Of a DNA stretch of 64,000 nt, positions 25,548 through 28,198 are shown one piece after another (the first letter of the stretch is position 1; each line of letters begins with the position of its first letter). The DNA lies in contig NW_026889803.1 in the NCBI RefSeq assembly GCF_033153115.1, positions 15,624,001-15,688,000 on the forward strand, given 5' to 3'. Position numbers and translations under genes: made by a program. The notes beneath the pieces are model-generated. The model was not told the DNA's origin, searched no databases, and saw only the letters and a program-made list of their open reading frames with translations. Source of the DNA: Saccostrea echinata (taxonomy: Eukaryota).

Positions 25548-28198
25548 TCAGTTACAAACGAATTGCAATTGAATATTATCCGGTCGGAATATGGGTATTC
25601 CTTCATTTGTAATGCTCCAGACTAACTGAATGGCTTCACCGTAGTCTTTGCCGTATAGTTTTGGAGGTGTATTATCAAGTTTCAGTGATCCATCACAAGG
25701 TTGAAAATGCCCAAATCGTTTACAGTATGGCTTGCAAATATTTCCACATGGATCGTAAGCCTGAAAAATAGCTTCAGTGTGAAATTTTTCCGGACTTTTG
25801 ACTGCAACATAAATTGTTGATGATGTGTATGGCTGCCTAGAATCAACAACAGCGAACTCACGGAAGGATCCATGATAGTTCAAACCATCGCTGTGGACCA
25901 TGATCTTAGTGAAAATTCCGTCCATGTCTCGACAAGATCGAGAGTAGTTAACATTTTGAATGAATTTTCCTTTTAAACTGTCATAACCGGTTGGATCATA
26001 TATATCTTTTCCGGTTTTCATTTGTCCTTCTTCAATCGGAAACGAATCGAATACCATCTGCTCATGTTGTCGTTTATATATGACTTGGACAGGTATGTAT
26101 ACCCAAATTCTGCTGTCTGATATACCATTCATCTGAAACAAGTTTTGAATCACATTTGTTGGGACAGTTGGAGGGCACATGTTTGTCATAGGACTTAAAA
26201 TTATTTCTTTATCTCCTTCCTTTAATCTTTGAAATACATCCACATTATTCTCATATTTTTCTGAGAAACCCATTTGAACTTTTTGCTGGTGTTCTTTTTG
26301 TTGTTCTGTTCTGTTCTGTGCGAACCTTGCGAGTCCATTTTGTCCGAATTGAGACAGCACATTCTGTCCCATGGTTGACATTCGGCTTGCGTCTATTACT
26401 CCTGCTTGTCTCTTTCTTCTACCAAATCTAGGTGGGAATTGAGGAATTCTGTTGCCCACAGGGAAATTTGGGAATCGCGATGTCTGTGTTGTTCGTTGTT
26501 GCGTTTGTTGATTTGTGGCAGATCCGAACGGTGCTGTTGGGGTAGTCGGAGTGATCATTTCCAATGTAACACACTGTGGTCGTCCAAACTGGAATTCACA
26601 CGTAAGGTAACGTGATCCACAGCTGGGATTTCTGTAACTACACGTTGGCGAAGGCTCATAAGTATACATTCTTGTAGTATACATGTCGCTCATTCCGTGA
26701 AGATTTCGAAGTCTTCCAAGTCCCATCAAGGAGTTTGGAGCATGGGCAGCCGTTCCATAACGTCTTGGATAATCCCTGGTTGGATCAACACCTTTCTCTC
26801 TTTGGCTTCTTCGGAAAACTTCCCACAGGTAATCCACAAAACAATGATGGAGATAGAAAATTGGATCGTATGCAGCAGTTTCAGCTGGTGACATTATGCC
26901 TCCAATGTGTTGGTGCACATCACCATGTCTGATTTCAAAGTCGAACGGTGGTGGCGCATGAGGCTCAGATATTTCCTCCAAAGTAGATCTTGTCATGACT
27001 GCCCGGATGTGTCTATAGGTGAAATATTCTCCCTCATGACCTCCAGCTCGAACAAGAGGTCCTGCTGGTGTCTGCCAGTATCTAAATGGTCCATCAATAA
27101 CACGACCTTTCATGGTTCCCACGAACTGTGGTGACCATATAATGGACCTAGTGGGATCTCTAAGCGGTTGATCGAGACGAGAATCAAAGTAGAGTAAAGT
27201 CACCCCTGGTACCTTCTGTCGGAGAGCATTTTCAAAGCTGTAAATTGATTAAAAATACATTATCGTACCTGAAAGACAGGGAAGTATTTAGAGTATTTCA
27301 GATTAGATTTTTAAAATGATAAATAATACATAAATTTATATTCGTTTTACTGTTTTCGATTTTTAAAGATAGTTTTGTAAATCAGTATAAAGGCTTCTGT
27401 AAACATTTTGTACCAACCCAGTTGCTGCAAGCTTGTGACTCAATATCTTGCATGTACTTGAAATTATGTTGATTAAGAAACTTACATAAGTAGAAGAACT
27501 CTATGGAAAGCCAGGAAAGCAGCTCCATGGTGGACGTCATCACCTCTTTGTTGATGAAGCAGTCCCAAGGCATCAAAACGGTTAGGTTTGACATCCTGAA
27601 AGGATCAATAGACATTATACCATTTTAAAAAACAATCCAGTCTTTGGTAAAGGAGTATAACGTCTAAAGGATACCAAGTAAAGTATTGATACATATGTTA
27701 ACAACTGTATAATCTACAAAATATGTGACATTTAGCAAAGAGGCTGGGGATCTTTTCCAGTCCTTAAAACTGAACTTATTTATTAAATTTTAAAAATGTA
27801 AATTTGCAGTTATTTACAGTATCTCTTTTCAGCATATTGATGGCTCTGAAGTAGTCCTGTCGTTGTTGATCTGTTGCCCGTCTGATTTCCACTCGTCTTC
27901 TCAAGGATTGTCTCTTGGTTCGTGCCTCCTTGTTGGCCATACGTAATAACTCGTCTATCCAGTGAGTTGTTTCTGTCGTAATGTTTGGGTTAAGGGCCTG
28001 AAGATGCCATCTGAATTTTTGAATACAATACTGATGAACATTATCGAGACGAGGGTCCATCTCTCTGGTGTGAAAACGAGGCTGATCGAAACAGCTCTTC
28101 AGCTCTTCGGGAGTGTCTATGATGGTCATCTTGGATTGGACCAACATACACAGAGTCGCAATAAGGCCTAGCCGGAATAGCGTTCCCATGGTAATCAT
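25548..28198 (-). CDS. Secreted tyrosinase-like protein (Tyr-A), ~726 aa, 3 coding exons: 28198-27818, 27595-27486, 27237-25548
   Basis: GT-AG introns join in frame (phases 0 and 2). Signal peptide MITMGTLFRLGLIATLCMLVQS. CuA site LLHQQRGDDVHHGAAFLAFHR; CuB site FEIRHGDVH...DPIFYLHH. Paralogous to Tyr-B with introns at the same positions. Start codon is 28198 or 28189. Confidence 0.93.

Follow-up and report, generated by a model that had tools for sequence, protein, structure and literature searches.

We have analyzed a 64,000-nucleotide stretch of Saccostrea echinata DNA (the window), which carries two tyrosinase genes, Tyr-A and Tyr-B. Within Tyr-A, the minus strand at window positions 26480-26409 encodes SRFPNFPVGNRIPQFPPRF-G-RRKR. 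The translation of this segment is exactly the SRFPNFPVGNRIPQFPPRFGRRKR, followed by QAG, that a preliminary description had reported; the plus-strand reading of the same positions was rejected because it offers no meaningful frame. The motif lies within a 566-aa ORF (25548-27248, minus strand), which forms exon 3 of a three-exon gene model with GT-AG introns that encodes 726 aa (Table 1). This model is one of three open exon combinations and was selected by its match to database protein P0003, labelled Saccostrea echinata LOC133205781, with which it is the same in length and sequence. The alternative combinations (713 and 714 aa) were rejected since they drop residues that P0003 has. The motif was checked in contigs from 4 of the 20 sequencing runs listed, runs with a small share being left out as evidence. 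It is unchanged in all three runs (only guessed to be RNA) whose contigs show a likeness of 99% or more, and RFG-RRKR is still kept in the contig of run X10, which has 41 differences in 601 bases.

Tyr-A matches the Pfam Tyrosinase family PF00264 with an E-value of 4e-19 (exon 3 alone scores 70.2 bits against a cut-off of 22.6), and its CuB histidines H268, H272 and H295 are nearly invariant. Its sequence places it among the bivalve secreted (alpha-class) tyrosinases, or type-3 copper oxidases, with a predicted phenol oxidase activity. The N-terminus, which is hydrophobic by inspection and is modelled as a helix at residues 2-18, is likely a signal peptide. An AlphaFold2 model built from 149 sequences (pLDDT 84.6) shows a helical pro-region, a copper domain to about residue 395, a low-confidence segment at 396-496 and a beta-rich C-terminal domain. 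Its single-chain pTM of 0.84 hints that the catalytic and C-terminal domains may pack together. The pLDDT exceeds 90 in the copper domain and is under 50 at residues 396-470, 473-478 and 480-496; RRKR sits in the middle of this low-confidence segment, between the two confident domains. Searched with Foldseek, the whole model matches bacterial tyrosinases, the best being the Bacillus megaterium tyrosinase 3nm8 (E=1.8e-12).

The beta-sandwich domain of about 215 residues is conserved and confidently folded, and it accompanies the tyrosinase domain in 126 of 150 family representatives. Modelled alone (511-726) it reaches pLDDT 90 and pTM 0.86. It has no Pfam match, PF12143, PF18132 and PF14830 included, and no Foldseek match at E<=0.001. 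In VIA the best match has Z 5.9 and rmsd 3.5 over 105 aligned residues, and the matches are generic adhesin/pilin and FnIII-like sandwiches. No structure of PF12143, PF18132 or PF14830 is found among the Foldseek and VIA matches listed, and an ESM Atlas search with residues 510-726 gave a single low-score lead (0.77). The matches of the modelled fold neither name nor exclude a family for this domain. A matching beta-sandwich part of Tyr-B lies near window positions 50645-51500 on the minus strand.

Table 1. Features of the Tyr-A gene and its predicted product, in window coordinates.
Feature	Position	Strand	Evidence
Exon 1 coding: likely signal peptide, pro-region, first furin-type site, catalytic start	27818..28198	-	gene model, same as P0003
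N-terminal furin-type site RTKR (residues 93-96), followed by Gln	27911..27922	-	51/66 representatives have a site here
Exon 2, with CuA histidines 141, 149/150 and 158	27486..27595	-	gene model
Exon 3: remaining catalytic domain, linker, C-terminal domain, stop	25548..27237	-	ORF, gene model, Pfam
Type-3 copper domain in exon 3, with CuB histidines 268, 272 and 295 and Cys-rich end (to residue 395)	26544..27237	-	Pfam, pLDDT over 90, Foldseek
Predicted disordered linker rich in P/Q/F/R/G, residues 396-496	26241..26543	-	pLDDT under 50; poor ortholog alignment
Single Arg427, weakly supported as the proposed upstream cut	26448..26450	-	context PNFPVGNR-IPQF; missing in O. edulis and M. gigas rows
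Arg434-Phe435 (RF), not conserved	26424..26429	-	R434F and F435V in S. cucullata
Gly436, possible amide donor	26421..26423	-	exposed by trimming in 12/22 ortholog rows
Linker furin-type site RRKR (residues 437-440), followed by Gln441	26409..26420	-	R-X-[KR]-R in 22/22 ortholog rows
Conserved C-terminal beta-sandwich domain, residues 497-726, without a Pfam family	25551..26240	-	model pLDDT 90, pTM 0.86

A tree of the catalytic region places Tyr-A in a clade of 21 rows (support 100/96) from oysters, pearl oysters, mussels, an ark clam and scallops. These rows and one fragment of the O. edulis cluster make up the 22 ortholog rows; hemocyanin row P0194 was excluded from the counts of ortholog rows and of the wider clade. 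R-X-[KR]-R, the furin consensus according to passages of PMC3061863, is kept at one place in the linker in every ortholog row, while the linker itself is hardly alignable. In the mussel orthologs P0008 and P0084, Arg makes up almost the whole linker ahead of the site, unlike the P/F/Q-rich linker of oysters. As a family baseline we used 150 representatives at 50% identity, of which 126 have both domains; the 24 lacking one were dropped. R-X-[KR]-R is found in the linker of 59 of the 126, about six times the 9.3 expected from shuffled linkers, and the basic cluster thus exceeds chance. The linker site is absent in the other 67 representatives and in Tyr-B, so cutting is not required family-wide. 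A site in the pro-region is present in 51 of the 66 representatives that have this region, and in 34 of these 51 it is followed by Gln; the P1' residue at the furin-type sites is a small residue or Gln. Tyr-A itself has the furin motif at both RTKR and RRKR, and RRKR shows the conservation and the predicted accessible loop that are expected of a furin substrate. In the S. echinata genome, 30 loci were fetched for a survey, 7 of which were missed by the CuB pattern and are uncounted. Among 18 ORFs with the motif of the C-terminal domain, 13 carry the linker site and 4 of them expose Gly; RF-G occurs only in Tyr-A. Taken together, the family and own-genome counts indicate that the basic motif is a family trait and that an adjacent Gly is common, and that RF is no family trait.

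The preliminary description read the Gly and basic cluster as an amidation signal, and RF before them as the end of an RFamide. The convertase site, conserved in all ortholog rows, and an amidatable Gly, kept in all eight true-oyster rows, support this in part; the RFamide part is not supported. After cleavage and trimming, an RF-amide would be possible in only 3 of the 22 rows, namely S. echinata, C. virginica and one further record from the latter's cluster. The congener S. cucullata, in which only 1 of 299 catalytic residues differs from Tyr-A, reads PPFV-G-RRKR, as do four further records of its 90% cluster. The M. gigas ortholog LOC105320007 reads RFT-G-RKKR and that of O. edulis RFRTG-RGKR. 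RF is retained in pearl oysters, where it is followed by G-RTKR or A-RTKR and trimming would leave no Gly exposed, and the scallop-clade rows read FFG-[NT]-RAKR. The predicted amide ends are -PRF in S. echinata and C. virginica, -PFV in S. cucullata, -RFT in M. gigas, -TGR in O. edulis, -GRR or -RRR in Mytilus and -IHR in Tegillarca, and no amide is predicted in the three pearl-oyster-clade and five scallop-clade rows. The orthologs thus largely keep R-X-[KR]-R and not RFG, which is the pattern that the preliminary description had itself named as contrary to its proposal. RF is uncommon at the furin sites of the family, the product of positional frequencies being about 6e-4 per site; the 30 residues upstream of the site in the Tyr-A clade consist of 14% R, 9% F and 13% G. 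By simple arithmetic about 55 random six-frame matches to RFG-RxKR, mostly non-coding, are expected in the whole genome.

On this evidence we think it probable that Tyr-A is cut at RRKR, a conserved furin-type motif whose surrounding linker is predicted to be disordered, that this separates the copper enzyme and the C-terminal beta-sandwich as two chains, and that the RF before the motif is incidental. A furin-like convertase in the secretory cells of the mantle would cut after R96 and R440, converting an 82 kDa proform into pieces of about 9, 39 and 33 kDa en route to the periostracum. N-terminal Gln cyclises to pyroglutamate, and the Gln at both new N-termini would be expected to do so. Trimming by a carboxypeptidase would expose Gly436, and PAM may then amidate part of the molecules, either as a side effect or as a modest stabilising cap. 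The purpose would most likely be the maturation of a tanning enzyme of shell and periostracum, released from its folding partner or loosened on it, and not signalling. Ordinary convertase processing of a shell enzyme is thus what the sequence of Tyr-A likely reflects; amidation is possible, and a role as neuropeptide precursor unlikely. Since Tyr-A is likely a proprotein cut at two furin-type sites, the mature enzyme would be of about 39 kDa instead of 82, and the periostracum would be expected to contain the beta-sandwich part as a chain of its own, of 33 kDa. Two-site cutting predicts the sizes of bands, the termini to be found by proteomics and the right recombinant construct. Tyr-A and about half of its two-domain relatives would be likely proproteins, which is of use to research on shell formation.

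Published work on the orthologs agrees with such a setting. The M. gigas ortholog LOC105320007 is Tyr-12, measured in the mantle and induced by retinoic acid according to the available part of PMC9656583, and a partial text of bioRxiv 10.1101/2022.04.18.488701 lists it among the tyrosinases enriched in black periostracum protein. Furin-type sites have been proposed in EGF-ZP shell proteins (passages of PMC9290575), and incidental amidation by PAM is described for antibodies and large secreted proteins in a portion of PMC4146454. The accessible portions of PMC11667028, PMC4003781 and PMC5379566 do not mention such a cleavage of tyrosinases. We found no paper stating two-site furin processing of bivalve tyrosinases in the literature covered, which excludes most subscription journals and the main bivalve tyrosinase papers.

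Several known systems resemble the processing proposed here. Tyrosinase A3 of Pinctada maxima (AHZ34288) and Tyr-12 of M. gigas, both orthologs by the tree (100/96), share the domain order and both furin-type sites of Tyr-A. P. maxima, however, reads RF-G-RTKR, with no Gly exposed, and M. gigas RFT-G-RKKR, RF-G being found directly before the basic run only in some oysters. Pif97/Pif80 and BMSP are secreted shell-matrix precursors of bivalves that are split into two chains, as proposed for Tyr-A, and Pif is cleaved at RMKR in the part of PMC11291548 available. Their domains are unrelated to those of Tyr-A, and the cleavage of Pif is demonstrated where that of Tyr-A is predicted; the same part of the source does not mention amidation of Pif. 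The fungal short (type 1) PPOs AoCO4 and TtPPO are type-3 copper oxidases trimmed at the N-terminus by Kex2/furin-type proteases, much as would happen at the RTKR site, and passages of PMC6238066 report similar activity for cut and uncut enzyme. Unlike Tyr-A, they lack both a C-terminal domain and a linker site, and their cut was seen in expression hosts. The type 2 PPOs have a catalytic domain, a linker and a C-terminal beta domain that is removed by proteolysis, the enzyme being activated on removal of this shielding domain (excerpts of PMC11803259). The layout of Tyr-A is alike by analogy only: the same excerpts class molluscan tyrosinases as type 1, as opposed to the shielded type 2 enzymes, and the C-terminal domain of Tyr-A has no Pfam match.

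The preliminary description had gone further, to a secreted enzyme that doubles as a neuropeptide precursor and releases IPQFPPRF-amide, or displays PPRF-amide, for an RFamide receptor. If true, this would be the first molluscan enzyme to yield a neuropeptide as well; the comparison speaks against it, and we hold it to be very improbable. RF-G and a basic run are indeed present exactly in S. echinata, C. virginica, the X10 contig and Solemya, and the genome holds genes for copper type II monooxygenases (31 PF03712 matches, a search that does not separate PAM from dopamine-beta-hydroxylase-like proteins). Against this, RF is lost in S. cucullata, M. gigas, O. edulis, mussels, the ark clam and scallops, and none of the 18 Gly-exposing sites among the 67 linker sites of two-domain representatives follows RF. 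The RF is probably no hidden hormone, since it is not kept even in the sister species. The putative peptide is present in a single copy, and the conserved C-terminus and the N-terminal boundary of an RFamide precursor are not found. The cut at Arg427 that was proposed to free the peptide has little in its favour: this lone Arg has no basic residue at P4, P6 or P8, precedes Ile-Pro and is absent in O. edulis and M. gigas. Lone monobasic sites without a basic residue at P4, P6 or P8 are poor convertase substrates, a rule for which our literature search found no usable source. The evidence on orthologs indicates mantle and periostracum. Molluscan RFamide precursors (FMRFa, LFRFa/sNPF, luqin, NPF and CCK/SK, with pleurin and SLRFa) also have RF-G followed by basic residues, but they are dedicated and mostly neural, and the peptides they hold are conserved, in the passages available of PMC4208409 and PMC8398477, whereas Tyr-A has one unconserved RF-G within a 726-aa enzyme and no good upstream cut. 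New bivalve RFamide precursors are still emerging in those passages of PMC8398477, which also describe the true bivalve SLRFamide as highly similar across species, unlike the RF of Tyr-A. Three surveys of oyster neuropeptides (PMC12564202, PMC8398477 and PMC4200219) contain neither 'PPRF' nor 'tyrosinase' in their main texts, and PPRFamide is absent among the literature matches listed. An uncut RRKR, serving in vivo as a basic patch of a cationic linker, is also improbable. Our case for cleavage comes from sequence, mussel orthologs have poly-Arg linkers and over half of the family lacks the site; yet R-X-[KR]-R is exact, with a small residue or Gln at P1', and stands at one place in all 22 rows in a segment that the model predicts to be exposed and disordered.

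That the cut is real and that amidation of the catalytic-chain tail was itself selected in a bivalve tyrosinase clade, the amide mattering and not the residue that bears it, seems to us rather doubtful, although the word incidental may understate the Gly, since its exposure is above linker composition and concentrated in one clade. The proposed benefit is that an amide would leave a cationic/aromatic matrix-binding tail without its terminal negative charge and would block carboxypeptidases. The wider clade consists of the Tyr-A orthologs, sister paralogs and a Solemya protein (21 rows). Trimming would expose Gly in 14 of these 21 rows; of the 71 site-bearing rows elsewhere, 12 would do so. As the rows are kin, the Fisher value of this comparison is no real probability. 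Gly precedes the basic run at every basic-P3 site of the 21 rows, and exposure is reached by two routes, G-R-[KR]-K-R and, in four rows, R-G-K-R. An F-amide end would result in six rows and an RF-amide end in three. In the sister paralog, x-G-R-[KR]-[KR]-R persists in all five tree rows, and a scallop fragment with its best matches in that clade has it too; the Gly of the eight true-oyster rows also fits selection. Since trimming-exposed Gly is common in the clade, the catalytic chain may end in the amide of a variable residue. Set against this, Gly exposure is lost in all three pearl-oyster-clade, all five scallop-clade and two mussel-clade rows; in P. maxima, with RF-G before RTKR, trimming would halt at Thr. 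Exposed Gly occurs family-wide at 18 of 67 linker sites compared with 7.8% in shuffles, but the difference from N-terminal sites (6 of 51) has p=0.06, and Gly at P5 is not clearly more frequent where it is exposable (11 of 38) than where it is not (13 of 77, p=0.15). The linkers concerned are also rich in P, R, G and F, and the AGA codons used here turn from Arg to Gly by one transition.

The Solemya homolog P0114 reads SPRF-G-RKRR. Its position as sister of the clade has support 93/79, 43 and unresolved in three trees, and an AU test did not reject its grouping with the Tyr-A orthologs alone (p=0.128). By parsimony the ancestor of the clade could have been amidated, with loss in scallop, pearl-oyster and some mussel-clade orthologs of Tyr-A. 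A still bolder view, in which an old bivalve tyrosinase clade carries a selected cleavage-amidation signal (P-x-F-G-R-[KR]-[KR]-R in its ancestral form, and present from Solemya to oysters) and a bioactive PPRF-amide in S. echinata and C. virginica couples enzyme secretion to RFamide signalling in the mantle, strikes us as scarcely credible. Judged from the motifs, conserved amidation is more plausible in the closest paralog of Tyr-A than in Tyr-A itself. The two loci of this paralog in the genome, L001 (G000:C75:2098000-2101100) and L002 (G000:C77:1114500-1117600), read PLPF-G-RKKR, and the clade of this paralog preserves x-G-R-[KR]-[KR]-R in rows from oyster, pearl oyster and mussel and, going by best matches, from scallop.

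Canonical R-X-[KR]-R is absent from Tyr-B (window 50642-54235, minus strand), both from its linker, which holds only RRDR as had been correctly noted, and from its exon-1 ORF. In P0021 and P0022, which neighbour Tyr-B in the tree, the linker does contain R-W-K-R, which indicates that the site can be lost. Just downstream of the long exon of Tyr-B, an ORF at 50118-50504 on the minus strand matches the chitin-binding peritrophin-A domain PF01607 (E=1.4e-05) and is probably a further exon of this gene. Another ORF, at 56887-57192 on the plus strand, begins like a signal peptide (MLPLLFVSILLF...) and has no Pfam match; we take it to resemble the first exon of an apolipoprotein D-like lipocalin. 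A long purine/pyrimidine simple-repeat tract with spurious ORFs occupies 11215-12197. The paralogs L016 and L021-L024 are short: a hydrophobic tail follows closely on the catalytic domain, as in proteins anchored in the membrane or by GPI. A tyrosinase search of the genome gave 48 matches, several of which form nearly identical pairs located on separate contigs. Within about 130 kb, one strand carries at least four tyrosinase-like genes, the two in the window and those at G000:C54 15608071 and 15735777.
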